A DNA stretch of 63,440 nucleotides from a virus (taxonomy: Duplodnaviria > Caudoviricetes), in IMG/VR virus record IMGVR_UViG_3300025133_007312, positions 1 through 63,440 of that record, one strand, 5' to 3'. The notes below the pieces were generated by a model. That model saw only the letters and a list, made by a program, of their open reading frames with translations. It was not told the origin of the DNA and searched no databases. This document shows positions 10 through 58,871 of the stretch, one piece after another; within the stretch, counting starts at the first letter, position 1; the number at the start of each line of letters is the position of its first letter. A program made the translations under genes and the position numbers.

Positions 10-678
10 TTAATAAGAGGGCAACAGTGTTTCTTCTAATTGAAAAGCATTACGTTGTGCCGAACTTGATACATAAGATTCATAATTCATTACATTTTCA
101 TAAGTTTGATTATAATAATTGTATATAACCTCAACGGACGCACCTTTCATATCAGGGGGATTATTAATTAAGTTCTTGTACCTGTCATCCACTGCAAAAC
201 CAAAATCGAATGTCAGTTCCTCAAATTTATTATTTACACCATATTGCGGGGGTGTAACTCCCAATGGATTAGAAACCCCCTGTAAAGATGTAAGGGAGTT
301 AATCCAGTTATGTAAAGAAGGTTGTTGATTGTAAGTACCGCTTTCGTCGTCAGAGGTACTAAACGCACCCCCTGGGGATCGAAGAATGGGTTCAATTTTT
401 AATATTTCTTTGTCCCAATTTGTCACCATGTTTGTTGGTTGAGCGCCACGGTTTTGGGCGAAAACCAGACTGCTTATTTTATAAGAAATAGATCCAGCAA
501 CAGAAGTGCGATCCGAGACAAACTCGCCCGAAGAATCATAAACCTTGCCCAACCTATAGCGAATTAAATCAACATTATCTGGTTTATAGATAATGGTCTG
601 CTTTCCTAAAGGGGGCGTCGTTTCATCATTATATGATGCAGAGGAAAATAATTTAATGTCGGTTTGTAATGGGGTCAT
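10..678 (-). CDS. hypothetical protein, probably virion-associated
   Basis: 222-aa ORF coupled by a TAATG overlap to the upstream structural-module gene; no recognisable motif. Confidence 0.55.
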   Translation of the reverse strand: MTPLQTDIKLFSSASYNDETTPPLGKQTIIYKPDNVDLIRYRLGKVYDSSGEFVSDRTSVAGSISYKISSLVFAQNRGAQPTNMVTNWDKEILKIEPILRSPGGAFSTSDDESGTYNQQPSLHNWINSLTSLQGVSNPLGVTPPQYGVNNKFEELTFDFGFAVDDRYKNLINNPPDMKGASVEVIYNYYNQTYENVMNYESYVSSSAQRNAFQLEETLLPSY

Positions 679-21500: not shown

Positions 21501-24500
21501 CAAGAGTTGGCGACCAAAAACTTCCTGCTGTTGCGTTTGTAAAAACTTCTTGTGTCAGTTCAGAGAAGGTACTAGTAGGATCAAAAATTAACCCGTTAGC
21601 GACTAGTGCGCCATAGAAGTGATGACCTCTACCCAAGTCAATTTCATAATCTACATAAGGTCCATGACTGGGCGATCCAAGATCTCTTTGACCAACTTGA
21701 TCTATACTCGAACTAAAATTATGCCAAAAACCATAATTATTGTTTGTCATCAACCCCGCGCTATTATTACTAAAACGAATTCCAGGGGGAAACTCAATTT
21801 TAGATGAAGATAGAACTTGATCATAGAACCACCCAGGATAGTATGTCTTGCCATCAGATGTAATTGCCCCATTGTCAAACCCCCTATCTACATTAAAAGT
21901 GGTCGGGTGCGCGGTCATCGCCGTAAACTGGATAAGAGTGGACATTCCCCTTTTTTCATCCTCTGAAACCCCATATTGATATGCTGGACTTAAAAACTCC
22001 GTTAAGTTATCCCAGTTGTCCTCCAACGCGGAATAGTCTCTTGGACTCACAGAGGGATCGGGATGCCCACCAGACAAACCTGATGTTAAGAGAATTTCGG
22101 CAGCGCGGGAAGTGTGCTGTGGATCTGCTCCATGTTTATCAATCTTTTTCGATGGGGAAGTATCTTCTGTGCCCGCATAAGGTGTATTATTAAGTCGATA
22201 TTTTTCAGCATTAGTTAGATTAGAGTCCTCGTTTAAAGACCAAATTTTGATGCCGGTAGGTTGAGGGTACGGCATGTTTGGGTTCGGAGACGATTCTAAT
22301 CCAAAATACTTTCTAAAAAGAAATCCACTAGGGGCACGTTCAATATCTTGTGATATTTGAAGAATTTCACCCGGAGATAATGTTCCATCAGTCAAAGATT
22401 TAATTATCTGTGGACTAATAAATTCCAGGTCATTATTGGCGGAACTATAAGATGCATTTAATCGCGGTTCAGTTTCGGATCTTTGGATGGGCACCATTCT
22501 AATCCATTGTTCTAACAAAATTGTATCAATCGAAGTATCCCCTCTTGCACCTACCAATTTAGACATTCGATTAGCGACTGACCAGATTTGTTGTCGTACC
22601 AAAAATTTAATTGCCACATCATAATCAGTTTCCAGTATTCTTTCAGATGTGGAGGGATCTAGTGGAAGATCAACGTTGCGATTATATAAATCTAATACCT
22701 CTTTCTCAAATTCAGTAAAATATCCCTCTTTCTCGATTTCAGACGTAATATATCGACCAATATATAATACTAATAGGTTATCTACATCCTGGGGTTGCTT
22801 GTAGCGGAACCAATAAAAGACTTGCAACGAACGTAAAAATATTTCTGTTATATAAGTTCTCAGTATTAATAAAACAACGCCACCAAGGTTAGATTTTTCA
22901 AAAGGATTATCTTTATTACTACCAAGTCCGGTTGTATTAGGAAAAGACGCTTCCAGGCACTGAATAACAGAATATTCTTGTTTAATTCGATTTTTTACTG
23001 CATCTACATCAAGCAAATGCGCCGGACATTTTTGATTTTCAATACGCATAGGAGATAAATCTAATGCATTTAAATTTTTTAAATCGAACATGGGGTTTGA
23101 ATCTGCACCAATTTGACTTGTGAAACTACAAAAAATATCACGCCATACCTCATTATAGTAATTTAAGTTTCCTGCTGGCGATGTATCAAAAAGTTCTTTT
23201 AAGTTCGCTGTATTGGTGCCCATTCTTTGGCGGGGTTGCAATTCTAAATTTTGGTAAATTTGCGGACCCATATTAAATGAATCGTCTACTAAAGATCTAA
23301 AAAAGTTATCTTGAGGGGTACGATCTTGATATCGAAGGTGGTGAAGTGGATCTAAATTCCGTCCAGAATAACAATCTACTGCCCGTTTATTGATCTTTTC
23401 TTGTGGACCAGAAATGATCGTATTCAATTCTAATTGTTCTGCTCCGGAGGATGTTTCCCTAAATGCAGTGGGAGTGTCAGCAGCCACAATAAATCGAAAC
23501 TTATCCTCCGAATCATATCCTTCGTCGATCCACCCCCACGGAACATCATAGTTCAAACTAAATCCAAGATCATTAATCTTTCCAAATAACCCCCCCAATG
23601 CTTCTTTGAACCCAGCACCAATTTGTGCGTCCGACTGAGATCCCCTTGTATCTTGAGGAGTAAAAAAATCACTATCAAAGGTAGAACCCTTTAACGTCTC
23701 TAAATCAATATTAAGATTATCCAAAAGTTTATTAGGGACATCAAATTTAAATCTCTCGGCAGGAAGATTGTTATTTAAGTTAGTTAAGGGGGAAATGTAA
23801 AGTTTATTAAGTCCAGATTCCCTATGGCAAAAAGTCCGATATGTCTCTTGAAACCCCGGAGCAAAAGTATCATGACCCCTCTCCTTGATCACAACAGGAA
23901 CTGGGGAATATCCGTATTTTTGACTATAATATCCATTAGGGTCACTCCTCCCACCAAGGGATTTTCGATAACCAGGATTAGTATTATCATAAAAACTAGA
24001 ATTTGAATTCACATATTCATATAACATTTCAGATTCGGGAAAAGGTTTTGACATTCCTTGTGCCTGCTGAACGACGTTGTTCAGCTCTTCGGGGGCGGTA
24101 TTATTAGGATCGGGGGTGTCGTTGTGTGCAGCACCCACTGTAAAACCGTAAGATTGGAGAATCTCTGCTGTAGCACCCAACCAATTTACATTAACAAACC
24201 CAGAATCAGATGGAGTAGGCGGATACCTTGCTGGTTCATTAGATGTGAAAGATTTCATTGTTTCCCCATTCTGGTCAACTGCACCGGGGGGTAAAGAACC
24301 AAAAGAGTATTGCCCTTTTCCCACTAAATCTAAAAATTCAGCATTAAACATCCTTACAACTTTACCATTAATTTTCCTAGTAACTGTGCGAGGAATAATC
24401 CTCTCGACAGTTGGTGTTACGGTAACAGTGGGGACATAAGAAACTACATCCCGATTAAACGTGGTGGCGACACTATCATACAAAGTTCCAAGCAACTGAT

Positions 24501-34630: not shown

Positions 34631-35731
34631 CCCCCAAATTTTTTCACCACGATGAGTCGGGTCTTTGCTTATTTGCACCCTCAATATCTTCTCTATTTCT
34701 TTAGATGTAACACCATTTCCCAACCATAGTGCATTTCCACTAAAAGGTTTAAGTGCCCAATCTAAACAATTTTGAAAATCCTCATCATTTGCATCAAGCA
34801 TTATACTACATTCGTTTTCTAAAGATTCAGGGCGCTCAGTAAAATCTCTGGGCACTATAACGGGGACATTTAATAGGGCGGGTTCTTCTTGTGCTGTACC
34901 GCTATCACTAATGATGAATAAAGAATCTTGCATAAACTTAACAAAATCCCTATATCCCATTAAATCAATTACCTCTATTTTTCCTAATGTGATTCCATAT
35001 TCCTCTATTGATTTAAATGCTCTACCAAAATTAAGCATTTTCACAGACTTTCCAGTTTGTTCAATACAAAAATTTGCAAATTTTATAATAGATTCCATTC
35101 TATCTTTATATTTAAAATTTTCAGGTCTATGAATATCTAATAAGATATGCTCTTTGATTCCCACATAATTTAAATCCACGATCTCATTTAAAGGTTCAAC
35201 AATCGTGTTTCCCACCACAAATATTCGCTCCTCGGGGATACCTTCTCGTAATGCCTTTTGCTTATAATTTTCGTGATAAACAAAAAGAAAATTTGAAACA
35301 TGATCGCAAACTTTTCGATTAATTTCTTCTAGCATTCTCTCATCGTAACTTCTCATTCCCGCTTCAATATGCCCTATCTTATACCCCTCTTTACGCAGGG
35401 GAACTGCGGCAAGAACTGAATTACTGTCGCCCAAAAAAAGGACAACATCAGGATTAATGTTTTTCTCACGAAACAAATCAATAATTGCCGGTCCTAAGTC
35501 TGCTTGCTGTTGATAATGAGATTTTGTAGGACCACCAATCTGCAAATTATAATCAGGTTCGCGAATATTCAAATCTTTAAAGAAGATTCCCGATAACAAC
35601 TCATCATAGTGTTGTCCTGTGTGAATCAAAATATGCTCACACCAATCTGCATTGTCTAATGCTTTAAACACCTCTGACATTCTAATAAAATCAGGACGAA
35701 TACCTGAAACTGTTACTATTGTCTTTTTCAT
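34628..35731 (-). CDS. wecB: UDP-N-acetylglucosamine 2-epimerase (non-hydrolysing)
   Basis: GIRPDFI; HTGQHYD; GDSNS; HIEAGMRS; EEINR; DSGTAQEE; TERPE; ATG at 35731 gives an ATGA overlap. Confidence 0.9.
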   Translation of the reverse strand: MKKTIVTVSGIRPDFIRMSEVFKALDNADWCEHILIHTGQHYDELLSGIFFKDLNIREPDYNLQIGGPTKSHYQQQADLGPAIIDLFREKNINPDVVLFLGDSNSVLAAVPLRKEGYKIGHIEAGMRSYDERMLEEINRKVCDHVSNFLFVYHENYKQKALREGIPEERIFVVGNTIVEPLNEIVDLNYVGIKEHILLDIHRPENFKYKDRMESIIKFANFCIEQTGKSVKMLNFGRAFKSIEEYGITLGKIEVIDLMGYRDFVKFMQDSLFIISDSGTAQEEPALLNVPVIVPRDFTERPESLENECSIMLDANDEDFQNCLDWALKPFSGNALWLGNGVTSKEIEKILRVQISKDPTHRGEKIWG

Positions 35732-37350
35732 TGTTTTTCTAAAGTTTCCTTGATCGCAGAACACAACGTATTGTCGTAATCCTGATAATTTTCATGAGTT
35801 ATGAGGTTATTATATTTCTGGGATGTGGGGTGCCCACCATACCAATGAATTCCAATGCCTTTTTCTTTTAACTCTTTGAATGCATTTATCTCATATATAT
35901 TGTTTAAATTTTTAAAATCATAATAATAAACACTATCCACGTCCAAATTATGAATTTGGTTATTAAAAGCAGACGCCAACAACTCATAAGTGGGATATAA
36001 GTTTATAATCATATCAGATCCAATTGATTGATATTTACTTGGGTCAAAATTATTCATAGATAATTTAGCATAAGTTTTAAAAAGGATATTATTTTTTTCT
36101 GCCATCATAAATCCAATAGATGGCATAGAATTATGCCTGGGGTCATAGCACATAATAGTGTCCACATTAGAATGGTTTTTTATATTAAAGTTTGCGTTGT
36201 TAAGACTCTTAAAGAAAATAATATCCATATCACACCATAGACCACCATTTTTATTTAAGATGTTCCACCTCAAGTAATCTGATTTATGGACTTCTGATGC
36301 CTCATTGGTGAGTGGGGAATTTGAAAAATCTACATAAATCGTTTTAACCGAAACTTCTTCTAATAGTTTGTCAAAATAATCTAATTCCCCTGTATAATCT
36401 GTGCGATCATAGCGGTGATGATTATCATCTTCTCCCCAGGTTCGAGATTCACTTAAAACTTTAGGCAAATATAGATGAACAGACCAATCAGGATTATGAG
36501 TCTTAAAACTTTTAATCGTCATATATCTCATAAACGACATTTTATTACTCCCCCAATAAAAATTAGCAATCTTGGGGATCTTCCCGAGGTGCCATTTCGG
36601 GGAAGCATCATATATCTCCCCAGTCAACTTATCTGCCTCTGCTACACAATTTCGATTTTCCACAGAAAGAGAGTCAGGGGGGTCATTATGAGTCCCCAAT
36701 ACTTGATCCACGTAAGCATATCTACTCTTTAATCCCATTCTCATCGCCATATGATAATCTTCACCCGGAATATTTATATAATCACCGCATCTTTTCTTTA
36801 AATCCATTGTAAACATAAAGCAGGTTCCAAGGAAACACTGGATTCGGTTAATCTTACACCAATCATCTCGAATCACTACGTCGCCTGAAACACTATTATC
36901 ATGTGATTGCCCATTACAAAAGGTAAATTTCTTGGAATATGGATCTTGGTGATAAGGTTTGAATATACGACCTAAATATTTACTCTCGAAAGCAGACGAA
37001 ACAAATTCAATATCTCGATTATCTTTCATTACCGTTACTAAGGATTCTAAAAAATGAGGGACTTTATTATCATCTGATGATGCCCACGTACCAAATTCCC
37101 CGTTCGCTTTTAAAAATCCCAAATTTAATGCAGACCCAGTGCCGCCATTTTTCTTAGTAAAAATTTGAATGCGCTTATCTTGCTTGGCATAATTTTCTAA
37201 AATAGTAGACGTATAATCGGTAGAACCATCATCCACAATTATTAATTCAAAATTTTCATAAGTTTGAGCGAGAATATCGTCTATAGCAGATTTAAGATAA
37301 GGCGCGTCATTATAGGTGGGCATCACTATTGAAATTAAATCTTTTTCCAT
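35728..37350 (-). CDS. two-domain glycosyltransferase (GT2 + GT32-like DxD domain)
   Basis: ISIVMPTYN...VDDGSTD; then IPKIANFYWG...KSDYLRW.IL...GGLWCDMDI. Confidence 0.85.
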   Translation of the reverse strand: MEKDLISIVMPTYNDAPYLKSAIDDILAQTYENFELIIVDDGSTDYTSTILENYAKQDKRIQIFTKKNGGTGSALNLGFLKANGEFGTWASSDDNKVPHFLESLVTVMKDNRDIEFVSSAFESKYLGRIFKPYHQDPYSKKFTFCNGQSHDNSVSGDVVIRDDWCKINRIQCFLGTCFMFTMDLKKRCGDYINIPGEDYHMAMRMGLKSRYAYVDQVLGTHNDPPDSLSVENRNCVAEADKLTGEIYDASPKWHLGKIPKIANFYWGSNKMSFMRYMTIKSFKTHNPDWSVHLYLPKVLSESRTWGEDDNHHRYDRTDYTGELDYFDKLLEEVSVKTIYVDFSNSPLTNEASEVHKSDYLRWNILNKNGGLWCDMDIIFFKSLNNANFNIKNHSNVDTIMCYDPRHNSMPSIGFMMAEKNNILFKTYAKLSMNNFDPSKYQSIGSDMIINLYPTYELLASAFNNQIHNLDVDSVYYYDFKNLNNIYEINAFKELKEKGIGIHWYGGHPTSQKYNNLITHENYQDYDNTLCSAIKETLEKQ

Positions 37351-37361
37351 CTTTCACGCTC

Positions 37362-38639
37362 CTAACTGTTAAACTCTAACCCACCATCAAAATCAGATTC
37401 TTGAGAATGTTCATAAACGACACCACACATCTTCTTATATTGAGCGTCTTCTGAAAATTCCTCTTTAATCCATTTTTGCAATTTCTTGGATTTGGACAAG
37501 TGAGTATTATAATTTTTTACCAGCGCCCGCATTGATTTTTTAGCAGACCACTCCTTGGGAAAACACCATTGAGAATCTTTTATTAAAATATCTTGCCAAA
37601 CTGCTTCAGGTTGAATGGGTTTAAGATCATGAGCAACAGATGTAAACATAGCAGTTTTCTTCTTTTTAGTTGGGGCATATAAATAATCTAGTTGTCCGCC
37701 CCAAGCTGGCGTGATAATTGGTAAACCGTTACATGCTGCTTCAAAAATTGGCAACCCGAAACCTTCACCATGTGACAAAGAAATAAGGCACTTGATTTTA
37801 GGATGATTATATAATCCGACCATTTGGGATTCTGGAATATCACCATGTAGAAGATAAACTGAACATTGACGATCTGGATATTTAGATAAAATATTTTTCA
37901 ATCTCATTTGAGTGAATCGTCGATCACGTAAGGATTGTTTAGCAGTGGAAACCTTTAACACCAGTCCCACCTCTTGCTCTTTGAATTCCTGCACAAACCA
38001 TTCGATGGTATTTTCCAAATTTTTACGCGGTATCCAGGTAGCAACAACAAGAAAATTAAAATCATGCTTTAAATCAAGATCAATATTTTCTCCAGTCACA
38101 TCCTTAATAGGAAAATTAACCACATCTACTGGAACCGCACATGACACCTTAAAAGATTGCTTTGTCTGATGATTATATGCATCATAAACAGTATCTATAA
38201 ACCCACTTTTGGAATGTTCAGAAACCACCACAACTTTATTCATCATAAGAGATTTCTCTATCCATTTGGGGGATATTTTATTTGTTTCAGTTCCCGCTGT
38301 AACTCCAATATTGATGGGTGCGAGTTTTTCCCATTCTTGGGGGATTGTCACCTGAATCGACATATCAAAACCTTGTCCCGTAATCCACTCAGTACCGTCA
38401 CTATCCCTTCGACGTGTCATTTCATTATGCATATAAATGCCTGTTTTTTGAATCAAGTGGTCCATCCAGCGTCTTTCTTCATTATCTTCAATTAACCACG
38501 AAGTTGTACCCCAATTAAGATTATCTAAATAAATATCAAATTCATCAGGAAGTGTCCTAAGTGCCCTTAATACAAATCGTGTATGCTCACCATATCCACT
38601 TTGAGATAATGCGGGTCCTTTAACCAAAACTCTTTTCAT
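37362..38639 (-). CDS. GT4-like (GT-B) glycosyltransferase
   Basis: SGYGEH; RKNL; GEGFGLPIFEAACNGLPII. Confidence 0.85.
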   Translation of the reverse strand: MKRVLVKGPALSQSGYGEHTRFVLRALRTLPDEFDIYLDNLNWGTTSWLIEDNEERRWMDHLIQKTGIYMHNEMTRRRDSDGTEWITGQGFDMSIQVTIPQEWEKLAPINIGVTAGTETNKISPKWIEKSLMMNKVVVVSEHSKSGFIDTVYDAYNHQTKQSFKVSCAVPVDVVNFPIKDVTGENIDLDLKHDFNFLVVATWIPRKNLENTIEWFVQEFKEQEVGLVLKVSTAKQSLRDRRFTQMRLKNILSKYPDRQCSVYLLHGDIPESQMVGLYNHPKIKCLISLSHGEGFGLPIFEAACNGLPIITPAWGGQLDYLYAPTKKKKTAMFTSVAHDLKPIQPEAVWQDILIKDSQWCFPKEWSAKKSMRALVKNYNTHLSKSKKLQKWIKEEFSEDAQYKKMCGVVYEHSQESDFDGGLEFNS

Positions 38640-39967
38640 ATTTCAATTAACTCCCATGTATCGTATCCTTTTCGATTTTCCCACGATCCATATTTCTCGT
38701 GTGTCTCTAACATTAACTTTTCCCACCTACTAATATAACTTTCAAATGAATAATCTTTTAAAATTTTATCTTGGCAATTCTTTCCTAACTGTTCGCGTTT
38801 TTCTGCCCCATATGCGTACATTTGCATTAAAGCATCCACCACCTGCTGTTCACATAAGCGATCTTCATAAATATATGGAACTTGCTGAGATCCAATAATT
38901 GCCTTCGAGGAAGATTCAAGCGCAATACCATAATCCGTTTCTATATTCTTGCCACTTTGTTGGCGGTGGCGCTCTTGTATTAAATCATGGGTAACGTTAT
39001 CCATATCTGTCACCTGTTCTTGTAATCCTCCCGTTAAAGTGGCAATAATAGGGGTGCCACATGCCATTGACTCAAATGTATATAATCCAAACCCTTCTGC
39101 ATCTGATATACTGATTGTGGTGTCTGCCGCGTTGTATATCATACATAAATCGTTAGGGGGCATTTTTTGATTGGAAAAATATATATTAGTGTTCTCAGTT
39201 AAATTTAACTTTTGTGCAATCGCGTGTAAATCTTGACCATTCGGGTCCTTGGGGTCAGTGTGGAGCAAAATAGTGGAATTTCTATGTCCATATTTTTTCT
39301 CTAACTCGTCTAAGAAACTCTTAAACCAAAATAATAATGAACCGCTTTGCTTTCGACGCGCATTTCGATTAGTCCAAAAAATAAAAAAGTTGTTTTCATC
39401 TATTCTTAAATTATCCTTTCTAAATTTTGAAACTATATTTTTATCTAATTTTTTAAAAATATTCGGCGGCACCGCGTGGGGGATATATTGCTCGTGGACC
39501 GTTGGGGATACCGTTTTAACTATATCCGATGTTAATTTTGATATAGTTGCAACTACATCAGTGGAGTCATACCACACCTTATTATAGTCAGGATAAGGAA
39601 AATTATCCCATACGTGATAATAAACTAAGGGAACTAAAGCACGAATTTCATGTTCCATGTCCCACAACCACTCATAAAACCGAGGGTCAGTCATAAACCA
39701 CAATATATCAGGTTTATAACTCCTTATAATCGACCTTATGGAATCTGGTGTTCCATACCCATCCACAGGATGGATAACCCAATCGTCTTTATATTCTTCA
39801 GTTTTTGTAAGGTTATAATTTTGATGTTTTATCGCACCGGCAACACTATAAAAAGAAAATTTTCCAGTATCTAAAAGTCCAGTTATAAAATATTTAGTTT
39901 GAGTTCCAACACCAGAAGGTGATAGGGGGTGATCCGAAATTGTAAGTATTTTTATTTTTTTATCCAT
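38636..39967 (-). CDS. GT4-like (GT-B) glycosyltransferase
   Basis: SGVGTQ; NRNARRK; AEGFGLYTFESMACGTPII. Confidence 0.85.
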   Translation of the reverse strand: MDKKIKILTISDHPLSPSGVGTQTKYFITGLLDTGKFSFYSVAGAIKHQNYNLTKTEEYKDDWVIHPVDGYGTPDSIRSIIRSYKPDILWFMTDPRFYEWLWDMEHEIRALVPLVYYHVWDNFPYPDYNKVWYDSTDVVATISKLTSDIVKTVSPTVHEQYIPHAVPPNIFKKLDKNIVSKFRKDNLRIDENNFFIFWTNRNARRKQSGSLLFWFKSFLDELEKKYGHRNSTILLHTDPKDPNGQDLHAIAQKLNLTENTNIYFSNQKMPPNDLCMIYNAADTTISISDAEGFGLYTFESMACGTPIIATLTGGLQEQVTDMDNVTHDLIQERHRQQSGKNIETDYGIALESSSKAIIGSQQVPYIYEDRLCEQQVVDALMQMYAYGAEKREQLGKNCQDKILKDYSFESYISRWEKLMLETHEKYGSWENRKGYDTWELIEI

Positions 39968-41852: not shown

Positions 41853-43175
41853 TTATAAAACCTTCGCAGAAATTGTAGCAACCTTTGATCTTTCACCTTT
41901 CAAAAATGTAACATGCCCAGAAATATCAAACTCTTTAAGTTTTTCAATAACATACGCTAATCCGTTTGAATTTTCGTTTAGGTTTACATTATCGATCTGT
42001 TCTATATCTCCAGTTAAAATTATTTTGCTACCTTCTCCGACTCTAGTTAAAATAGTTTTAACTTCATGACGTGTTAGATTTTGACATTCATCAATAATAA
42101 TATAGGCATTTTGAATACTTCGACCTCGAATATAGGTTAGTGCCTCTACCTCAATAACCCCTTTTTCCATATAAGACTCCAGCATTAAATCATCGTTTCC
42201 AAATAAAAATCTTAAATTATCTTGAATGGGCGCTAACCAAACTCCCATTTTTTCTTCCATCGTTCCTGGCAAATATCCAATATCTTTGCCCATTGGCATG
42301 ATAGGGCGTGACACTATGAGTCGATTATAAGTTGGTTTCTCACCAATCACCTGCTCTAACCCAGCAGCAACAGCACACAAGGTCTTTCCACTACCTGCTT
42401 TCCCTATGAGGGAAACCACAGGAATATTGCTATTATACAATAAATCCATCGCGAAATTTTGTTCTTTATTTTTAGGGGCGATGCCCCATGATGATCCCGC
42501 CCGGTGTTCTTTGACTTTATGGAGGGGTTCGTGTTCATTAGTAAATTGCGTTAATACTGTTTTCTTCTCATTTGCCGAAGAAACCATCATTACAAATTGA
42601 TTTGGAGAAAACTGAGTTATATCGGAGATATTTTCCATATATATGTTTTCGCCTTCGTAAACTCGATCAATAATTTGATCATCTACTAAGATATCGATAA
42701 ATCCCGTATATAACTCTCCTCCATGCTCTATAATATTTTCAGGAAAGTAATCTTCTGCTATAATCCCAATCGCATCACACTTTATTCGTAAATTGATATC
42801 ATTACTAACTAAAATTACTTTTTTAGTGGGATTTTCAGTTTTTAAAGTAAGTGCAGTAGCAATAATTTGGTGATCGGCAATTGATGGGTCATAACCTACA
42901 GGGAGTTCGTCCAAGTTAGGTGAAACAGAAAAAGCAACACCCTTACCTTTGTCAATTCGGACCCCCTTATGAAGTAAACCCTTCTCTCGAAGACCATCTA
43001 AAATACGAATAATTCGTCGTGCATTTACCCCCACACCATTTGGTCTTTTTTTATGCTTATCTATTTCCTCAAGTACAATTAAAGGTATTGCAATATCATT
43101 ATTTCCATAAGAATAGAAAACTTTAAAGTCAGTTAAATATACACTAGTATCAAGTACATATATTTTTTTCCCCAT
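41853..43175 (-). CDS. phoH: PIN-domain PhoH-family ATPase (PhoH2/YlaK-like)
   Basis: N-terminal PIN VLDTSV; GKAGSGKT; YIRGRS; IIDECQN; GDIEQID. Confidence 0.92.
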   Translation of the reverse strand: MGKKIYVLDTSVYLTDFKVFYSYGNNDIAIPLIVLEEIDKHKKRPNGVGVNARRIIRILDGLREKGLLHKGVRIDKGKGVAFSVSPNLDELPVGYDPSIADHQIIATALTLKTENPTKKVILVSNDINLRIKCDAIGIIAEDYFPENIIEHGGELYTGFIDILVDDQIIDRVYEGENIYMENISDITQFSPNQFVMMVSSANEKKTVLTQFTNEHEPLHKVKEHRAGSSWGIAPKNKEQNFAMDLLYNSNIPVVSLIGKAGSGKTLCAVAAGLEQVIGEKPTYNRLIVSRPIMPMGKDIGYLPGTMEEKMGVWLAPIQDNLRFLFGNDDLMLESYMEKGVIEVEALTYIRGRSIQNAYIIIDECQNLTRHEVKTILTRVGEGSKIILTGDIEQIDNVNLNENSNGLAYVIEKLKEFDISGHVTFLKGERSKVATISAKVL

Positions 43176-51290: not shown

Positions 51291-51881
51291 TTATTTTCCT
51301 TCATGGAAATACACATTAAAAAGTGCTTCCATAGATTTTGCTGTTGCCAAAGCATCATAATATGAGCGATGACGTTCATTATTTTTTAGTTGATTGTTGG
51401 TAGTTTCGAACAAGACATCAGCAGATGCTCTATTGCCCCCAACGTGATTAACGAGCATTAAAAATTCTAAAATTGAGGCACTATCTACAGTGCGTCCATA
51501 AAAATCCTCATTGATATTTTCATTTGCCAATTTATATAATCTCTGCAAAAAACCATAATCAAAACTAGAGTTGTGAGCGATAATTTTTGTAGGTTTGCGT
51601 TCTGGACCGAGAACTGTGTCCATTTTTTTTCTTATGGATTTCACTGCTTCGTTCGGACTTTTTCCTAACTGCTTTACCTTATTTAAATCAATTTGGTTAA
51701 TTTCCATCGCTTTTGGAATACAACTAATATTTTCTTCGCAAATATATGTATCGAAAATCGGTTTAATAACCTTTCCAGGTTTCCATAGAATACCGCTGAT
51801 TTCCAAAATGCTGTGTTCTTTTGGATTCAGTCCGCCAGTTTCTACGTCAAGTACAATATATGACTGTTTATCTTTGAACAT
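51291..51881 (-). CDS. DEDDh 3'-5' exonuclease (DnaQ/oligoribonuclease-like)
   Basis: VLDVETGG; AHNSSFDYGFL; HRSYYDA. Confidence 0.85.
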   Translation of the reverse strand: MFKDKQSYIVLDVETGGLNPKEHSILEISGILWKPGKVIKPIFDTYICEENISCIPKAMEINQIDLNKVKQLGKSPNEAVKSIRKKMDTVLGPERKPTKIIAHNSSFDYGFLQRLYKLANENINEDFYGRTVDSASILEFLMLVNHVGGNRASADVLFETTNNQLKNNERHRSYYDALATAKSMEALFNVYFHEGK

Positions 51882-51939: not shown

Positions 51940-52350
51940 TTATGATGGTTGTTTATTAAGGTATTTCAATACTTTATCGTGAATTTTAGAATCCACATTA
52001 TCTTTCCAAGAAGAATCACCTTGATTAATCTTATTTCTAATTTCGGTGGCAGAGATAAACCCTATATTTGGCGGTGGTACATGCTCAATAATGCCATATC
52101 CTACGCCACGACCATAATTAACCGATTCAATATCCGGAATAGTCATTACCACTACGTCTTTATCTGCATAAACAGTTTCTAACATGTCCACTGTTTCTTC
52201 AGTGGTAAAGGGGTTTTTATCATCAGGGGGAATGTCCCTAACACAAATTAAAACAGGGATATTTTTATCTAATTTTTCTCCGATTAACCATTTGTGTCCA
52301 TTATGTAAAGGTTGCCATCTACCGACAAACATCGCTCTCTTAGTAGTCAT
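51940..52350 (-). CDS. HIGH-superfamily nucleotidyltransferase (cytidylyltransferase/NMNAT-like)
   Basis: MFVGRWQPLHNGH; ISATEIR. Confidence 0.8.
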   Translation of the reverse strand: MTTKRAMFVGRWQPLHNGHKWLIGEKLDKNIPVLICVRDIPPDDKNPFTTEETVDMLETVYADKDVVVMTIPDIESVNYGRGVGYGIIEHVPPPNIGFISATEIRNKINQGDSSWKDNVDSKIHDKVLKYLNKQPS

Positions 52351-52712
52351 TTATTTTCTCCTATTATAAAATCTATAGTTTTGTGCCATGCATTTGGGTC
52401 TTCTTTTTCAAATCTAATGGCGTGATCATCAATATAGTATTTTGCCGGATGTTTAATATTAGTAACATCATCAAAAAAATGCGATAAATTATATTTATCC
52501 AACCATTTGCGAATAGGTTTAACGGGACGACTAGACACAATAATTAATCGATACCCCGCATCCTTTAATTTTTGAAGTGACGGTATTGCACCTGGCATTG
52601 GTGGGTCATATGTATTGGTTAACCCCTGAAACCCTTTAGAATATTGGTGAATAACACCATCAAAATCAATAGCAATTGTAGATTCCTTAAATTGTGTTTT
52701 TACTTCTTTCAT
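52347..52712 (-). CDS. HAD-superfamily phosphatase (capless)
   Basis: IAIDFDGVI; VSSR; K; YIDD. Confidence 0.8.
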   Translation of the reverse strand: MKEVKTQFKESTIAIDFDGVIHQYSKGFQGLTNTYDPPMPGAIPSLQKLKDAGYRLIIVSSRPVKPIRKWLDKYNLSHFFDDVTNIKHPAKYYIDDHAIRFEKEDPNAWHKTIDFIIGENK

Positions 52713-52713
52713 A

Positions 52714-53511
52714 TTATAATTTTAAAAACTCCTCCCATGTTGTTTTTAAGATTTCCAAATCGGATTTCCAAATGTGCTCCACCTTCTCCCTTGATCCCTT
52801 ATTTTGCTCGTATATCTCCCATTTACGTCCACTCAGTACATGGTGGGGCGAAGATCCTTTTTCAAAATATTTTTTGTTAAACGGAATATTATACTTTTCA
52901 AATTCAAAATCAGAGCGAAGTATATCCTCTAAAAATATAAGATGATCTATATTTTTTATAATTTCTTGTTCTGTCTTATAATGGGGGGGATAAGGTATGA
53001 CTTGAGGGACTGCATGTAAAAATACATTTCTTAGTGATGGATGGGGAAGGGGAACTGGGTCGCATAATAAATCCAGATAATCATTAAAGGTGTAGTTCTC
53101 CCAATTAGGCAGTGAAGGACCGACGAAACCACAATCCATCCACACTTTGAATTGATTAAAGCAAGAAATCGCCCTATCATATACATTCCTAACAAAAAAA
53201 ATATTTTTATAGAGAGGATCTTCAAAGTGTTGTAAGGATGCTTGTTCTGTGGGAAAATATGGGACAACCCCTTTGGCGTGCCCATACCAAGTAGGAGATC
53301 GATAAAGGTGCAACCACCCGCGATTTTTTTTATTTAAATCACTATATGCCTTTTCGAGCATGTTTTTTGAAGCATAAAACGCCTTTAAAATACTCAGACT
53401 AGCGACCTTGGGACGATGATAATAACATATTTTTCTTTCGACATCGAGGAGCGCGTCGATGATAAATATCCCTTTTATGGACTGAGATTCTATTTGTTGT
53501 TGATAATTCAC
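52714..53511 (-). CDS. PAPS-dependent sulfotransferase (Sulfotransfer_2-like)
   Basis: 5'-PSB-like HRPKVASLSI; 3'-PB-like FVRNVYDRAIS; H..PQ. Confidence 0.7.
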   Translation of the reverse strand: MNYQQQIESQSIKGIFIIDALLDVERKICYYHRPKVASLSILKAFYASKNMLEKAYSDLNKKNRGWLHLYRSPTWYGHAKGVVPYFPTEQASLQHFEDPLYKNIFFVRNVYDRAISCFNQFKVWMDCGFVGPSLPNWENYTFNDYLDLLCDPVPLPHPSLRNVFLHAVPQVIPYPPHYKTEQEIIKNIDHLIFLEDILRSDFEFEKYNIPFNKKYFEKGSSPHHVLSGRKWEIYEQNKGSREKVEHIWKSDLEILKTTWEEFLKL

Positions 53512-53516
53512 TTTTT

Positions 53517-54266
53517 CTATAATTGAGAAATAATATATTTCTCTAAAAGTGCCACTGATTGATCTAAACTCTGATTAGCGGTATTAATTATGAGATCGCA
53601 GTCTTTTGGTTCCTCAAAGGGATCAGAAACTCCCGTAAAATTTTGAATTTCCCCACTTAATGCCTTAGCATACAACCCCTTTACATCGCGGTCGATACAT
53701 GTCTCTAAACTACACTTTATAAAAACTGTTTTAGCGCCACATTTATTTTCCAATTCTTGGCGCACTTCTTGATACGGATTAATGGCAGACATAATAGTGA
53801 TTACACCATTTCGACTTAAAACCTTTCCCACAAATCCTAAACGACGAACATTAGTATTTCTATCTTCCTTGGAAAATCCCAAGTCTTTACATAATCCTTC
53901 GCGATATTCATCCCCATCAATGATTTCAATTTTATATCCCTTTTGTCGTAATTTTTCTCCAACTGTAAACGCCAGCGTCGATTTTCCTGCGCCTGACAGT
54001 CCTGTCATTTGTATAAACATACCCTTTGTTTTACCCCACTTAATAAAATTCCACAAGCGTTCATGAAGAAAAAACACAAACACTTGAATAATATTATAAC
54101 ATAAAGCTATTAAACTTGTAGATTTAATATTGCCTGTAGTCGCGAAGACAACCGCAACTAGAATAACAACGGCAACCAAGCGCCATGTTACTGCTTTCCA
54201 AAAACTTCTTTTTTTTGAGTCAATCATATTTTTCTCAACGCCAATAAACTCACACTGTTTTTTCAT
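53517..54266 (-). CDS. cysC: adenylyl-sulfate (APS) kinase with N-terminal DUF2061-like membrane domain
   Basis: TGLSGAGKST; DGD..R; LGFSKEDR..N; RDVKGLY; FTGVSDPFEEP; N-terminal RSFWKAVTWR...HERLW. Confidence 0.92.
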   Translation of the reverse strand: MKKQCEFIGVEKNMIDSKKRSFWKAVTWRLVAVVILVAVVFATTGNIKSTSLIALCYNIIQVFVFFLHERLWNFIKWGKTKGMFIQMTGLSGAGKSTLAFTVGEKLRQKGYKIEIIDGDEYREGLCKDLGFSKEDRNTNVRRLGFVGKVLSRNGVITIMSAINPYQEVRQELENKCGAKTVFIKCSLETCIDRDVKGLYAKALSGEIQNFTGVSDPFEEPKDCDLIINTANQSLDQSVALLEKYIISQL

Positions 54267-54323
54267 ATAGAATATTTCACAAAGTTTCCGTATATATATT
54301 TTTTGGAAAAACTATTTATGAAT

Positions 54324-55166
54324 ATGTCTTTGCATGTAAGTTATATTATTCCCCACCGAGATCGTGAAGGTCTTTTTCAATATAACCTAAATAGTCTCAA
54401 GGCACAAACTAATAAAGATTTTGAAATTATTATAATAGATAGTTCACAGGATTCCTCAAAAATAAAAGAGATTGTAACTCAATACAAAAAATTTTTAAAT
54501 ATTCGTTTATTTTTTGTAGACCCCAAAAAATGTATCTATGCTCACGACGGCAGCATTTATGGTAATAATTTCTGCCCCGCACTTCAACAAAATATAGGGG
54601 TTAAAAAATGTGATGGGGATATTATCGTCCTTACATCTCCAGAGATTGTCAATGCGTCCACAAATGTAAGTAAAATTATTAATAAATTTAAAAACAGAGA
54701 CTCACAATTTTTATTAGGGTGGATGGACGAAATGAAAAAAGAAAATATAGCACCATGGATCAATTCGGGATACAACTTAAATCAATTAAAATCCCTCTGC
54801 GAGAACAATGCCAAAATTGGTGCGTGGTGTAAAGAGCATGATTGGCGACCAGCAAACTATTTTCTAGGAGTTCTCCTAAAAAAAGATTTCATTCATATTG
54901 GGGGAATAGAAGAGTCTTTCATGGGGGGAATTGCATGGGAGGATGATGAGTTCTCTCGTAGGTGTATTGATAATGATATAAAATGTTCTTTTGAGGGCGG
55001 TATTGGGGGCGTTCATCTCTCCCATCCACGCACTTATCAATGTGTCGGGGAGACGGCATGGGAAATTGATAGCATTAATGGAAAAATTTTTCACCAAACT
55101 TATAATCTCGTTGCTAACCAAAATCACGAATGGGGATCTTTTGAAACTATCATAGGGGAATATTAG
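54324..55166 (+). CDS. GT2-like glycosyltransferase with GT7-C-like motif
   Basis: VSYIIPHRDR; FEIIIID; GGIEESF...WEDDEF; start uncertain (54303/54318/54324). Confidence 0.8.
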   Translation: MSLHVSYIIPHRDREGLFQYNLNSLKAQTNKDFEIIIIDSSQDSSKIKEIVTQYKKFLNIRLFFVDPKKCIYAHDGSIYGNNFCPALQQNIGVKKCDGDIIVLTSPEIVNASTNVSKIINKFKNRDSQFLLGWMDEMKKENIAPWINSGYNLNQLKSLCENNAKIGAWCKEHDWRPANYFLGVLLKKDFIHIGGIEESFMGGIAWEDDEFSRRCIDNDIKCSFEGGIGGVHLSHPRTYQCVGETAWEIDSINGKIFHQTYNLVANQNHEWGSFETIIGEY

Positions 55167-55172
55167 TTTAAA

Positions 55173-56861
55173 ATGAAAAATTATGCTGAAAATTTATGTA
55201 AATCTTTTCCGCTATGGAAGAGATTTTCTGAGCGGTTTAAATGGAACTTGGGAGACTATGACTTTAAATCCTACACAAACCCAGAAAGCATCCCCAAAAA
55301 GCAAAAAAGCACCTTTAGTAATTTTAAACAATTTTTTGATTGTGTATATATTGTTAATTTAAAAGATGAAGTAAGTAAATATGAAAAAACCCTCAAAATA
55401 TTGAATTCCTATAACATCACAAATGTTAAAAGAGTTATCGCATATGACGCGATAAATAACCCTAAACAATATCGCAAACTAAAACGAATCCACGACCAAA
55501 GTGCTACTGAACATTGGAAAACAGAGGGTCTTTTCAGAGTCCCAGGAGCATTCGGAGTTCATATGTCTCATATTTGGATTCTTGAAGATGCAATTTCTCA
55601 CAAATGGAAATCCATTCTTATTCTGGAGGATGATGTTGTATTACATCAGGATTTTTATGACCTTTTCATGCACCAGTATAAAAATTTACCCGACCATTGG
55701 AAAATGTGGCAGTTGGGGGCATCACAGCATGGCAACTGGAATGAATTGGAGATTAATGACAAAAATCAACTCTACAAAGTGAAACCAAAGACATATGGAG
55801 CTTTTGCGTATGCTCTTAAATCAGAAATTTTTGGATTATTGTGGAATGAATTTCAAAAACATAAATTGCCCAATGATGTAATTACGGGTAATATTGCAAA
55901 TGAATATTATTCATCCAGCGCGTTTGTTTCTCATCCCAATCTAATAATTGCCGATATTATTCCCAGCAAGACACGGGGGGCATATAAAGAAACCTTAAAT
56001 CCGCCACCAAAAAATGACGGTAAATTCAAATATCCCAAAACCCTTCATTTATATTGGGGAAAAACCCCTCTTTCATTTTTAAATTACTTAACCGTAAAAT
56101 CTTTTTCCAAATATCACCCCCATTGGAAAATAAAGATTCATATTTCTAAAAATCCAACTCACCCTGCACTGAATAAAAGGGCATATAGCGGACCATGTTT
56201 TTTACAAAAAATAAAAAATATTCCCAATTTATCACTCCATCCAGTAGACTTAGATAATATTGGATTTAATAATGAAGGAGGTGACACCCACAAGAGTGAG
56301 TATTTTCGATATTATATATTAGAAAAAGAGGGCGGGGTTTGGTCTGATTTTGATATTCTTTATTTAAAATCTTTGGAGGGATCTTTTAATTTTACCGAAG
56401 AGAGTGTTATCTTTAAAAAAAGGTTTTTGGATTTGCAGTCTAAAGAACTTATTAAGTATCACCCTGTGGGATTGTTTTTATCACAACCAAAAAGTCGCTT
56501 TTTTAAATTTTTAAAAGAACAATGTGCAAACCAATATAACTCCACCAACTATCAACATGGGGGCACTAAACTATTTCAACGCTTATTTTCAAATGAAGGA
56601 AGCGTTTATGCCATTGATGAAGACTTACGAGAGCACATATTAACCCCCCAAAAACCCGCTTATTTACCTATAGAACGAAACAAGGTACATACCCTTTATG
56701 AATCCGGTTCTCCAAAAAAATTCACTTCCGATACCGTGGGCGTGTGCTGGTTTAATGGGACAAAAGAAAGTCAGGAATATAATTTAAAATTAAGTAAAAG
56801 GATAAACTGTTTTAATCCAGAATGCCCAATGGATTACCTAATCGAGCAATTCATCGCGTAA
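55173..56861 (+). CDS. two-domain glycosyltransferase (GT25 + GT32-like)
   Basis: FDCVYIVNL; GVHMSH; ILILEDDV; then YPKTLHLYWG...KSEYFRYYIL...GGVWSDFDI. Confidence 0.82.
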   Translation: MKNYAENLCKSFPLWKRFSERFKWNLGDYDFKSYTNPESIPKKQKSTFSNFKQFFDCVYIVNLKDEVSKYEKTLKILNSYNITNVKRVIAYDAINNPKQYRKLKRIHDQSATEHWKTEGLFRVPGAFGVHMSHIWILEDAISHKWKSILILEDDVVLHQDFYDLFMHQYKNLPDHWKMWQLGASQHGNWNELEINDKNQLYKVKPKTYGAFAYALKSEIFGLLWNEFQKHKLPNDVITGNIANEYYSSSAFVSHPNLIIADIIPSKTRGAYKETLNPPPKNDGKFKYPKTLHLYWGKTPLSFLNYLTVKSFSKYHPHWKIKIHISKNPTHPALNKRAYSGPCFLQKIKNIPNLSLHPVDLDNIGFNNEGGDTHKSEYFRYYILEKEGGVWSDFDILYLKSLEGSFNFTEESVIFKKRFLDLQSKELIKYHPVGLFLSQPKSRFFKFLKEQCANQYNSTNYQHGGTKLFQRLFSNEGSVYAIDEDLREHILTPQKPAYLPIERNKVHTLYESGSPKKFTSDTVGVCWFNGTKESQEYNLKLSKRINCFNPECPMDYLIEQFIA

Positions 56862-56876
56862 TCCAACCCTGAACAT

Positions 56877-58871
56877 TTAATTGCTTAGATCAGATGAAAT
56901 CGTTTTTAAAATCCCTTTGTCTCTTCGACTCATATATCGATTAAAAATTGTCATAAAATCGTTTTCTTCAAATGTATCAAGATTGGTATGATTAAATTTA
57001 TTAATAAATCTTTGTGAGTGGGGAGATCCGTTAAACCAGTGTATGCAGCACGAATTTTTTACCTTTCGTAACACTTCTTTGGGCGAGTGGGACGATTTAA
57101 AAAGCGTGCTCATCTGATACCACTTATAAGGGGCAAATACATCTATATTTACTAAACTCTTATCCCAATCATAATCATTCTCTAACATAAATTTACTTGC
57201 CACCTTATTAAGCATGGGGGTTCCGATACTCGAATAGTGGTCTGGATTTAAATTATCCCATACGGATTCTAATAATTTTTTCGTTATTTCACTGTCGGGA
57301 TGAGAAAACACTATATATTGACAAAAATGTCGTTCGTTCGATTTTATCTCGTTCTGATGATGATTACAAAAAACAAATTTTGATTTATCATATACTTGAG
57401 AAGCGGTCGGGCGCTTATGTTTGGTGCCAAATCCCCCATTAAGTGAAATCGCTAACTCTCGTATATCCTTATAGGAATCATAAGGGGTCGCCTTCACCAC
57501 CCTTTCAATTGAGTTAACCCAAAAAGTATCCATGTCTAACCACATTCCGCCTGATCGGGTCAATATTTTTAAACGTAAGAAGTCTGATTTAATGACTTCT
57601 GATAAATAAAATGGAATCCCCTCAAACCCAGATTCAAAATCGATTTCCACCACCTTAATGTCCATTTTTAGTAATTCTTTTATATAATTAGATGAGGTAT
57701 ATTTTTTCTTATTTTCAAAACCAGTCCAAGAATTATAAACAAATCTTCGTTTGGGGTAGTATAATACCACTTCCCAATCAGGATTAAATTTTTTAAAAGT
57801 ATAAAGCGTTAAATAATGCAAAAAAGATAAATTGGACATATCCCAATAAGTGAACGCAATTTTGGGAATAGAATTGAAATATTTTATATTAGGGGGACAA
57901 TAAATTTGATTTTTGGGCGCGTTTGCATAATCTGGATTTTCTATGAGTCGTGCTTGAAGGCATATTTTTTCCGAACGGAAGGGCACTTCATCTAACTTTG
58001 TTATTTTCTCTTTAAGAAGACCTTTAACTATTTCTAAAAAAAATTCCTCGGTGTGCTCATAAAATACTTTTTGATTTTGTTTCCACTGGGTATAGATTTT
58101 TTTATTTTTGGAATCTGCATTAATTTTGTAAGAAGGGTTTGGTTGATGATATTGGTGAACTACAAATACTTTCTCGGTAAACGGATCAGGAATTTCGATG
58201 TTTAACCCTGCTTGATATTTTAGTGACATAACAAAACCATCATCATCAAAGCAATACCCTTTGTAGTAATCTGAATTAAATCCGCCAACTTCTTCTAATT
58301 TTGTCTTATAAATGGCAGAACAGTAATGATATCCCGAAGTGATCGATGGTGCGGTTGGTTGAGGATGATTATACCAATAAACTCCCGAATTGACTTTATC
58401 TTTATTTATTTTCGCCAATCCCTTATCAAAAAACACCATATCATATATGGTTTTTCTAGAATTTAATATCTCCTGAGTTGCTTCTTTTGAGTGAGAGGTA
58501 TAACAGGCATAACTTATATATTTGTCTTTAGTTAAGTTTTTTAATGTGTATCCTAAAATGTTTCCCTCATGGATACACTCGGGACTTTGAATAATAATAA
58601 TATCCCCTTGCGCTTTTCTAAATCCTAAATTATAAATTGCGCCTGGGTTTACTATCTCACGCTGGTTCCGTTTAGTTATCACCTTTAACAATTCAATTGG
58701 AAATGAATATTTTGCTAGGATATTGTCGATTTCATGGCGTTTATTACTATTGTCGTCCACAATAATAACTTCAAAATCATATTTACCTGTGTAATCAGTT
58801 TCAAATTTGTCTAAAGTGCTCTGTAATAATTCTTTACGATTGTGATACGCCATTACAATGGAGAATTTCAT
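56877..58871 (-). CDS. two-domain glycosyltransferase (GT2 + GT32-like)
   Basis: FSIVMAYHNR; VDDNS; GGFN...FDDD; then IPKIAFTYW...KSDFLRL.IL...GGMWLDMD. Confidence 0.82.
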   Translation of the reverse strand: MKFSIVMAYHNRKELLQSTLDKFETDYTGKYDFEVIIVDDNSNKRHEIDNILAKYSFPIELLKVITKRNQREIVNPGAIYNLGFRKAQGDIIIIQSPECIHEGNILGYTLKNLTKDKYISYACYTSHSKEATQEILNSRKTIYDMVFFDKGLAKINKDKVNSGVYWYNHPQPTAPSITSGYHYCSAIYKTKLEEVGGFNSDYYKGYCFDDDGFVMSLKYQAGLNIEIPDPFTEKVFVVHQYHQPNPSYKINADSKNKKIYTQWKQNQKVFYEHTEEFFLEIVKGLLKEKITKLDEVPFRSEKICLQARLIENPDYANAPKNQIYCPPNIKYFNSIPKIAFTYWDMSNLSFLHYLTLYTFKKFNPDWEVVLYYPKRRFVYNSWTGFENKKKYTSSNYIKELLKMDIKVVEIDFESGFEGIPFYLSEVIKSDFLRLKILTRSGGMWLDMDTFWVNSIERVVKATPYDSYKDIRELAISLNGGFGTKHKRPTASQVYDKSKFVFCNHHQNEIKSNERHFCQYIVFSHPDSEITKKLLESVWDNLNPDHYSSIGTPMLNKVASKFMLENDYDWDKSLVNIDVFAPYKWYQMSTLFKSSHSPKEVLRKVKNSCCIHWFNGSPHSQRFINKFNHTNLDTFEENDFMTIFNRYMSRRDKGILKTISSDLSN

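Follow-up and report, generated by a model that had tools for sequence, protein, structure and literature searches.

The virus record IMGVR_UViG_3300025133_007312 (Duplodnaviria; Caudoviricetes) raises the question of how a phage that encodes a kinase for adenosine 5'-phosphosulfate (APS) and a probable sulfotransferase comes by its APS. The window analysed here is the entire IMG/VR record, 63,440 bases with a CheckV completeness of about 35%, and at 51940-54266 it contains four co-directional minus-strand open reading frames (ORFs) arranged head to tail: an APS kinase (CysC), the probable sulfotransferase, a small phosphatase of the haloacid dehalogenase (HAD) superfamily and a HIGH-motif nucleotidyltransferase (NT) of 136 amino acids (aa). 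They lie exactly where an earlier sequence-only reading had placed them, separated by gaps of 5 nt and then 1 nt, with a 4-nt overlap between the HAD and NT genes, and their ORFs, spacing and Pfam families bear out that reading's description of four tightly packed genes beside glycosyltransferases. NT is probably an ATP sulfurylase from a family not previously described, an activity to which gene fusion, neighbourhood and phyletic complementarity point, and the four genes together seem likely to form a phage cassette for the supply of 3'-phosphoadenosine 5'-phosphosulfate (PAPS) and for sulfotransfer, set inside a glycan-biosynthesis island. The assignment of NT is made because APS kinase is otherwise known to be fused to Sat and CysN, both of them components of sulfurylases, because HIGH enzymes transfer an alpha-phosphate with release of pyrophosphate (PPi), which is the chemistry of sulfate adenylylation, because NT is the sole candidate for a step that is otherwise missing in its bacterial carriers, and because it travels with sulfotransferases. 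A literature search of open-licence PubMed Central (PMC) and bioRxiv returned no paper describing the NT family as a sulfurylase or describing a phage sulfation cassette, and an earlier mention elsewhere is possible.

The first gene of the cassette (53517-54266, minus strand, 249 aa) is by sequence a canonical member of the APS kinase family, and its product is predicted to be catalytically active. It matches PF01583 over residues 81-228 (profile positions 1-152, E 5e-52), scores 196 bits with TIGR00455 against an equivalog-domain cut-off of 138.7, and carries the P-loop GLSGAGKST. An N-terminal DUF2061 domain (PF09834, E 1.5e-11) forms a predicted membrane segment at residues 24-73 (54048-54197, minus strand), which is common to the closest phage APS kinases, as their alignments begin at residue 12-14; its presence suggests that PAPS is synthesised at the membrane.

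The NT gene (51940-52350, minus strand) encodes a protein that matches PF01467 with 24.2 bits (cut-off 21), contains the motif GRWQPLHNGH and retains the HxGH and ISxTxxR motifs of HIGH adenylyltransferases, the HxxH residues H16-N-G-H19 being invariant in one alignment (A1) and nearly so in another (A2); R38 and R81 are among the residues that are invariant specifically in the NT family. The family is large and tightly conserved, with E <= 0.001 for 7,995 of 8,000 scored candidates, and its best 120 members are 126-148 aa long and 68-100% identical, many of them from marine surveys. Among 80 IMG/VR loci collected with the NT family profile (62 unique by NT ORF), 66 (51 of the 62 unique) have an APS-kinase-like ORF no more than 1.5 kb from NT, in the gene orders cysC-NT, cysC-HAD-NT and NT-cysC. 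Contig boundaries and spacing explain 6 of the 14 loci with no kinase nearby: cysC lies 2-3 kb away in two, NT stands at a contig edge in three and cysC is cut by the contig end in one. Divergent loci (50-57% identity) pair NT with a short kinase, 147-157 aa long, that still finds APS_kinase as its best Pfam family (E 1e-15 to 1e-18), and a HAD-like ORF of some 116 aa frequently comes after this kinase.

Longer relatives of NT repeat this association as gene fusions. An APS-kinase domain is present in 113 of the 120 best NT relatives of 239-2000 aa, in the order kinase-NT in 110 and NT-kinase in three. When 1.84 billion cluster representatives (50% identity) were searched exhaustively, 1,101 NT relatives emerged, and the best 150 of these comprise 87 short stand-alone proteins, 49 APS kinase fusions (37 kinase-NT, 12 NT-kinase) and 14 other long forms. 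Fused forms also occur on bacterial contigs of 121-659 kb, some of them labelled by their source as Pyrinomonadaceae, Acidobacteriota or Saprospiraceae. The partnership with cysC that the sequence-only reading had seen at a single locus is therefore found elsewhere, both by adjacency and by fusion, and a lack of linkage to cysC in other genomes, which that reading had named as grounds for refutation, is decisively contradicted. Rare fusions join NT to other partners: to Sulfotransfer_2 in one Pfam-verified protein (P0131, E 3.8e-12), to the HAD protein in another (P0121), to DUF6717 (P0171) and to an N-terminal stretch, some 240 aa long and rich in cysteine (P0172). Many stand-alone NT proteins of 130 aa are named 'adenylylsulfate kinase' by JGI; this label was probably carried over from the fused forms and is likely to have inflated counts of phage 'cysC' in surveys.

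Bacterial genomes point to the step at which NT would act. The 14 cellular NT loci comprise two from Acidobacteria with a kinase-NT fusion and 12 with a stand-alone NT of 152 aa, labelled as Dadabacteria, Thermodesulfobacteriota or similar. In a sample of 120 genomes, mostly metagenome bins, from the same phylum as the stand-alone carriers, NT is present in 78, Sat in 18, CysD in 15 and none of these in 9, and the sets carrying NT, Sat and CysD are disjoint. The 78 NT-positive genomes encode CysC in 74 cases, a CysH-size PAPS_reduct gene in 75 and Sat or CysD in none, so that under standard annotation they look auxotrophic at the ATP-sulfurylase step. Four of the NT genomes, including two closed chromosomes, were examined closely, and all encode a sulfite/nitrite-reductase haemoprotein. 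In Sat-positive sister genomes cysH adjoins sat, and the simplest reading of this distribution is that NT is a non-orthologous replacement of Sat. Of 101 sampled genomes from an acidobacterial class, in a second phylum, 71 encode Sat and 2 encode CysD; the three acidobacterial NT carriers have no Sat and no CysD over cut-off. Members of the NT family thus appear to stand in for Sat and CysDN during sulfate assimilation in one clade of marine bacteria (labelled Dadabacteria or Thermodesulfobacteriota) and in a few Acidobacteria.

Two side observations concern the same genomes. CysD occurs in fifteen genomes of about 1 Mb (G106 and G108-G121, in the phylum of G001), and APS kinase was not found (E <= 1e-10) in at least seven of them (G106, G108-G113), which suggests an APS-based rather than a PAPS-based route in this CysD clade. 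On two closed Dadabacteria-type chromosomes, the gene directly downstream of the stand-alone NT (at L092 8588-9334 and L093 8505-9251) encodes a class-I glutamine amidotransferase of 248 aa.

The enzyme that would consume PAPS in the phage is encoded at 52714-53511 (minus strand, 265 aa, GTG start), a probable PAPS-dependent, Sulfotransfer_2-like sulfotransferase of a rare subtype and the weakest family call of the four. Its match to PF03567 spans residues 24-254 and scores 19.5 bits (E 1.2e-3), below the cut-off of 22. In the ESM Atlas (feature score 0.97) PF03567 clusters make up 22 of its 30 matches and the protein falls among viral Sulfotransfer_2 clusters, and the Atlas's own model, with a predicted local distance difference test (pLDDT) score of 0.66, aligns to PF03567 clusters with a structural TM of 0.69-0.72. 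The near-full-length Pfam match, with its score under the cut-off, and the Atlas placement lend indirect support to the sulfotransferase named in the sequence-only reading. A homologue search found a single relative (48% identity), a PDB sequence search gave no match at E <= 10, and an AlphaFold2 model from a two-sequence alignment reached a pLDDT of 34.9 and was kept out of the fold searches. Sulfotransferases bind PAPS through a 5'-phosphosulfate-binding motif (5'-PSB, PKxxS/T) and a 3'-phosphate-binding motif (3'-PB, RxPxxRxxS). The residues P34-K35-..-S38 and R108-N-V-Y-D-R113-..-S116 are conserved in the sole homologue, and the latter stretch aligns, in a placement made from sequence alone, to VRDPFTRALS of the Pfam-verified fusion P0131, to whose sulfotransferase half the BLASTP match is local only (E 0.036).

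Sulfotransferases recur beside NT in other phages. A tblastn search with the window's own sulfotransferase found it in none of the 80 viral NT loci because the sequences have diverged; searches seeded with Pfam-verified ORFs do find sulfotransferases there, within 5 kb of NT in 26 of the 80 loci, and all ten of these that were checked pass the Pfam cut-offs. Two loci (L006 and L017) have the same gene order as the window, cysC-..-ST-HAD-NT, where ST is the sulfotransferase. Among 16 long viral records with NT, Sulfotransfer_2 is present in 8, Sulfotransfer_3 in 7 and one or the other in 13, and all five records that are at least 90% complete combine NT, APS kinase and a sulfotransferase. PAPS reductase (CysH) exceeds its cut-off in none of the 16, and the visible consumers of activated sulfate are therefore sulfotransferases, not reductive assimilation. 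Sat likewise exceeds its cut-off in none of the 16 long records; two sub-threshold Sat matches, in ORFs of 136 and 141 aa, cover the HxxH stretch only (model positions 29-91) and are most probably the NT genes themselves. CysD is present in none of the five near-complete records. Within the window Sat (PF01747) was not found and no search was made there for CysD, CysN or CysQ, and the lack of Sat says little about the whole phage because the record is only about 35% complete. For the same reason the module cannot be called self-contained, as the sequence-only reading had called it; that reading's proposal of a sulfurylase is supported by the linkage of NT to cysC and to sulfotransferases and by its complementarity with Sat and CysD.

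Another part of the interpretation that does not hold is the idea that NT is a stripped-down Sat. Sat-type ATP sulfurylases have about 380-400 aa, with an N-terminal PUA-like domain, a sulfate-binding QxRN motif before HxxH and a GRD loop, the last two both visible in the Sat alignment (A4). NT, with 136 aa against 385-575 aa for the Sat ORFs fetched, lacks the PUA-like domain. Where Sat has NYGCTHFIVGRDHAGVG in the GRD loop, NT has NYGRGVGY, a resemblance that rests on a non-significant alignment, and the GRD is present in the fused acidobacterial relatives of NT. The AlphaFold model of NT (71 sequences, pLDDT 93, predicted TM score 0.86) is a single domain whose best match is the nicotinamide mononucleotide (NMN) adenylyltransferase (NMNAT) of M. 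jannaschii (1f9a, Z 13.4, root-mean-square deviation (rmsd) 3.2 over 131 residues, 27% identity). Phosphopantetheine adenylyltransferase (PPAT) and NadM come next in the ranking, and the top Foldseek matches are 2qjo and 1m8k. The first ATP sulfurylase, 1v47, stands at rank 13 (Z 9.9, rmsd 3.0, 126 residues aligned). The structure comparison thus places NMNAT nearest and at the same time shows a fold shared with the catalytic domain of Sat, and on this model NT is a shortened NMNAT relative on the superfamily fold that it has in common with Sat. As NMNAT is closest by both sequence and fold, NT, if it is a sulfurylase, therefore arose independently of Sat and not by trimming.

Two bodies of evidence, one from the NT protein itself and one from its genomic contexts, weigh against the assignment of NT as a sulfurylase. 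In the protein, PF01747 gives 16.3 bits (cut-off 24.3, E 0.0068) and an hhalign comparison of the NT family with nine Sat proteins a probability of 4.5% (E 0.009), neither of them significant; the QxRN motif is not present, the FQTRNP of Sat corresponding to GRWQP in NT; twelve NMNAT or PPAT structures outrank the first Sat in the fold search; the NMNAT model PRK01153 matches NT with E 1.4e-13; and the NT family profile matches the archaeal NMNAT MJ0541 at E 4.3e-18. These results bear on the proposal that NT is a small adenylyltransferase for NMN or nicotinic acid mononucleotide, serving NAD salvage as in many large phages, whose adjacency to cysC would be meaningless. Such a role would suit an enzyme whose closest characterised relatives in sequence and fold are archaeal and NadM NMNATs, which shares the motifs GRxQPxHxGH, NPFT and SxTxIR with MJ0541, and whose more distant matches in cultured phages are NadM-type NMNATs. 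It is highly improbable all the same, since NT scores far under the family cut-offs (50.8 bits against 127 for PRK01153, 37 bits against 181.2 for TIGR01527, with a match limited to residues 4-76) and since its match to MJ0541 consists of two segments that skip chain residues 78-108, about 30 residues without a counterpart in NT, which we take to contribute to the NMN site. Moreover, no Nampt, Nudix or RNK partner was seen, and the partner in 66 of 80 viral loci and in frequent fusions is APS kinase. All five cellular carriers examined (G001-G005, the four genomes described above and one acidobacterial carrier) encode NadD over cut-off, and NT is therefore not needed for NAD synthesis there.

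From the genomic side, a kinase near NT was not seen in eight of the 80 viral loci, and four of ten phage loci collected with cysC as seed contain a sulfotransferase and glycosyltransferases and no NT within 6 kb. NT is therefore frequent and not obligatory, and phage sulfation clusters exist without it. In siphophages of Xylella, Xanthomonas and Stenotrophomonas a kinase-NT fusion has NADAR-like and MazG genes as neighbours and no visible sulfur context, and its kinase part matches only the first ~90 positions of PF01583. NT is fused in P0123 to a cupin of the mannose-6-phosphate-isomerase type (PMI-type). The sulfurylase model leaves the Xylella-type fusions, the NT-cupin fusion and the eight kinase-less loci unexplained. 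The fusions of NT to the HAD protein and to the sulfotransferase are single sequences on single contigs and possible read-through artefacts; single examples need caution because one sequencing error can join overlapping phage genes. In bacteria, the complementarity with Sat and CysD represents a few clades or evolutionary events and not 78 independent ones, and no sulfur gene adjoins the stand-alone NT in Dadabacteria-type genomes, where the neighbours (Leu/Phe-tRNA-protein transferase, GDSL lipase, class-I glutamine amidotransferase and Lon-like protease) are uninformative.

Details of some of these loci may be recorded here. Gene gp31 of Xylella phage Bacata (L001 4596-5336) and a gene of the large Stenotrophomonas phage DLP_6 (L002 3593-4324) encode kinase-NT proteins of 243-246 aa that belong to phrog_10255, and the Bacata gene adjoins a COG3236/NADAR-like gene and a MazG gene. 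In four viral loci collected with cysC as seed (L121-L123 and L125), none of which has NT nearby, cysC lies among Sulfotransfer_2 or Sulfotransfer_1/3, GT25, GT2 and FkbM-methyltransferase genes.

The HAD gene (52347-52712, minus strand, 121 aa) encodes a minimal capless phosphatase with 31.7 bits to PF00702 (cut-off 26.4) and 27.1 bits to PF13419 (cut-off 23.8). The four motifs that define the HAD superfamily can be read in its translation as DxDGV, SSR, K and DD. Its best PHROG is phrog_1238 (E 1.1e-16), annotated as heptose metabolism, its best PDB match is 3mc1 (E 2.6e-4), and NCBIfam and the Atlas also return generic HAD matches. A homologue lies between or beside cysC and NT in 27 of the 80 viral loci, and the phosphatase is therefore a member of the cassette, as the sequence-only reading had supposed. 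That reading had also proposed a role in removing 3'-phosphoadenosine 5'-phosphate (PAP); the protein matched only HAD families, which favours neither a PAP phosphatase nor a pyrophosphatase, and the two roles are equally possible.

The presence of a HAD phosphatase between a kinase and a nucleotidyltransferase invites a different account, in which these three enzymes supply the glycosyltransferases with a sugar or polyol activated by a nucleotide and the sulfotransferase uses PAPS made from host APS. The order kinase, phosphatase, nucleotidyltransferase is that of ADP-heptose synthesis, where HldA, GmhB and HldC form a triad of kinase, HAD phosphatase and HIGH nucleotidyltransferase; the HAD protein has the heptose annotation of phrog_1238 and weak GmhB-type matches (PDB 4pnh, E 0.053); the cassette lies amid glycosyltransferases, epimerases and UDP-glucose dehydrogenases; and the PMI-type cupin fused to NT in P0123 would also fit. 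This account is nevertheless unlikely, because the equivalog-domain model identifies the kinase as an APS kinase and not a sugar kinase, and because sugar- and glycerol-phosphate cytidylyltransferases match the NT fold more weakly (Z 6.1-7.3) than adenylyltransferases do. It also leaves unexplained the bacterial fusions of APS kinase to NT and the occurrence of NT by itself in genomes with CysC and CysH and with neither Sat nor CysD.

A third proposal keeps NT in sulfonucleotide metabolism and denies it the sulfurylase step: NT might recycle or degrade APS or PAPS, or make an adenylyl-anion of the selenate or phosphonate type for the kinase to phosphorylate at the 3' position. The linkage to APS kinase speaks for this as much as for a sulfurylase, since linkage alone sets the pathway and not the step. 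Two points make it very unlikely: in NT-positive bacteria every step of the CysC-CysH route except sulfate adenylylation has a candidate enzyme, and the transfer of an alpha-phosphate with PPi release by HIGH enzymes is exactly that reaction.

If NT is a sulfurylase, as is preferred here, the cassette would work in four steps. NT, on this view a descendant of an NMNAT-like enzyme with an origin separate from those of Sat and CysDN, would adenylylate sulfate (ATP + sulfate -> APS + PPi); the membrane-anchored APS kinase would convert APS to PAPS; the sulfotransferase would pass the sulfate to an acceptor, probably a sugar that the adjacent glycosyltransferases produce; and the small HAD protein would pull or clear the cycle, either by removing the 3'-phosphate of PAP or by hydrolysing the pyrophosphate of the first step. 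In its broadest form the proposal is that NT represents a third, independent class of ATP sulfurylase, of about 130 aa and derived from NMNAT, which serves sulfate assimilation in place of Sat and CysDN in marine bacteria of the Dadabacteria type and also in certain Acidobacteria and Bacteroidota, where it is often fused to APS kinase, and which supplies PAPS in many large aquatic phages for glycan sulfation and not for assimilation, with the HAD protein as PAP or pyrophosphate phosphatase. For this combined statement the chances appear evenly balanced.

Several known systems resemble the cassette in part. PAPS synthases and Sat-CysC fusions (human PAPSS1, 1x6v; Aquifex, 2gks; Thiobacillus, 3cr8) likewise join an APS kinase to a HIGH-fold adenylyltransferase, and these structures share the fold of NT (Z 7.0-8.7). 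In the animal PAPS synthase the kinase is N-terminal and the transferase C-terminal, which is also the commonest order in fused NT (110 of 113). The NT transferase differs from theirs in its length of about 130 aa against about 350-400 aa, in the lack of the PUA-like domain and in its kinship with NMNAT, not Sat. The archaeal and NadM NMNATs (MJ0541, 1f9a; M. thermautotrophicus, 1ej2; NadM, 2qjo) have GRxQPxHxGH, NPFT, GYE and SxTEIR in common with NT, whereas the partners of NT are APS kinase, HAD phosphatase and sulfotransferases and not NAD-salvage genes. The rhizobial NodP, NodQ and NodH proteins provide a dedicated copy of sulfate activation, with a CysDN-type sulfurylase (NodPQ), linked to a sulfotransferase that sulfates the Nod factor. 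The phage cassette likewise combines sulfate activation with a glycan sulfotransferase, and differs in that its near-complete phage relatives lack CysD and Sat. CysQ, a PAP phosphatase of the inositol-monophosphatase fold, is likewise a phosphatase tied to the use of PAPS, whereas the phage protein is a 121-aa HAD. A precedent for non-orthologous PAP phosphatases is the DHH-type enzyme reported from Methanothermococcus (PMC10322725).

To our knowledge, Sat and CysDN are the only two kinds of enzyme credited with sulfate activation. If a third kind with only about 130 residues is confirmed, genomes and metagenomes would have to be scored differently for sulfate assimilation, the 'adenylylsulfate kinase' label that some sources attach to small NT proteins would be explained, and PAPS regeneration in biocatalysis would gain a compact enzyme. 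The results also bear on the reading of phage cysC, which is widely reported, as an auxiliary metabolic gene. According to the main text of the COBRA paper (PMC10914622), cysC is known from phages and transcribed in lakes and is assigned there to assimilatory sulfate reduction; that main text does not use the word 'sulfurylase'. Compared with the phage cysC and cysH of that text, cysC in the NT-bearing records occurs with sulfotransferases in 13 of 16 and with PAPS reductase over cut-off in none of 16. In these phages cysC thus probably belongs to a glycan-sulfation system and does not boost host sulfur assimilation, which points to sulfated polysaccharides, made or modified by phages, as an unexplored feature of infection.

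The genes around the cassette fit a glycan-biosynthesis island. A divergent GT2 glycosyltransferase (54303-55166, plus strand; PF00535, E 2.1e-8) is followed by two glycosyltransferases of two domains each, one with GT25 and a DXD sugar-binding region (55173-56861, plus strand; PF01755, E 1.6e-8; PF04488, E 4.2e-7) and one with GT2 and a DXD sugar-binding region (56877-58871, minus strand; PF00535, E 2.4e-13; PF04488, E 1.3e-6). A second block at 35728-39967 contains three glycosyltransferase-like genes (phrog_2170, GtrB-like). Immediately downstream of NT, an RNase_T/DEDD-type exonuclease (51291-51881, minus strand; E 2.5e-15) was considered as a further member of the cassette and rejected, as tblastn found it in none of the 80 viral NT loci. 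Elsewhere in the window, a PhoH-like gene lies at 41853-43175, with matches in cultured phages that are all below 38% identity, and three giant ORFs at 5278-14778, 18544-26844 and 678-4133 (minus strand) encode proteins of 3166, 2766 and 1151 aa.

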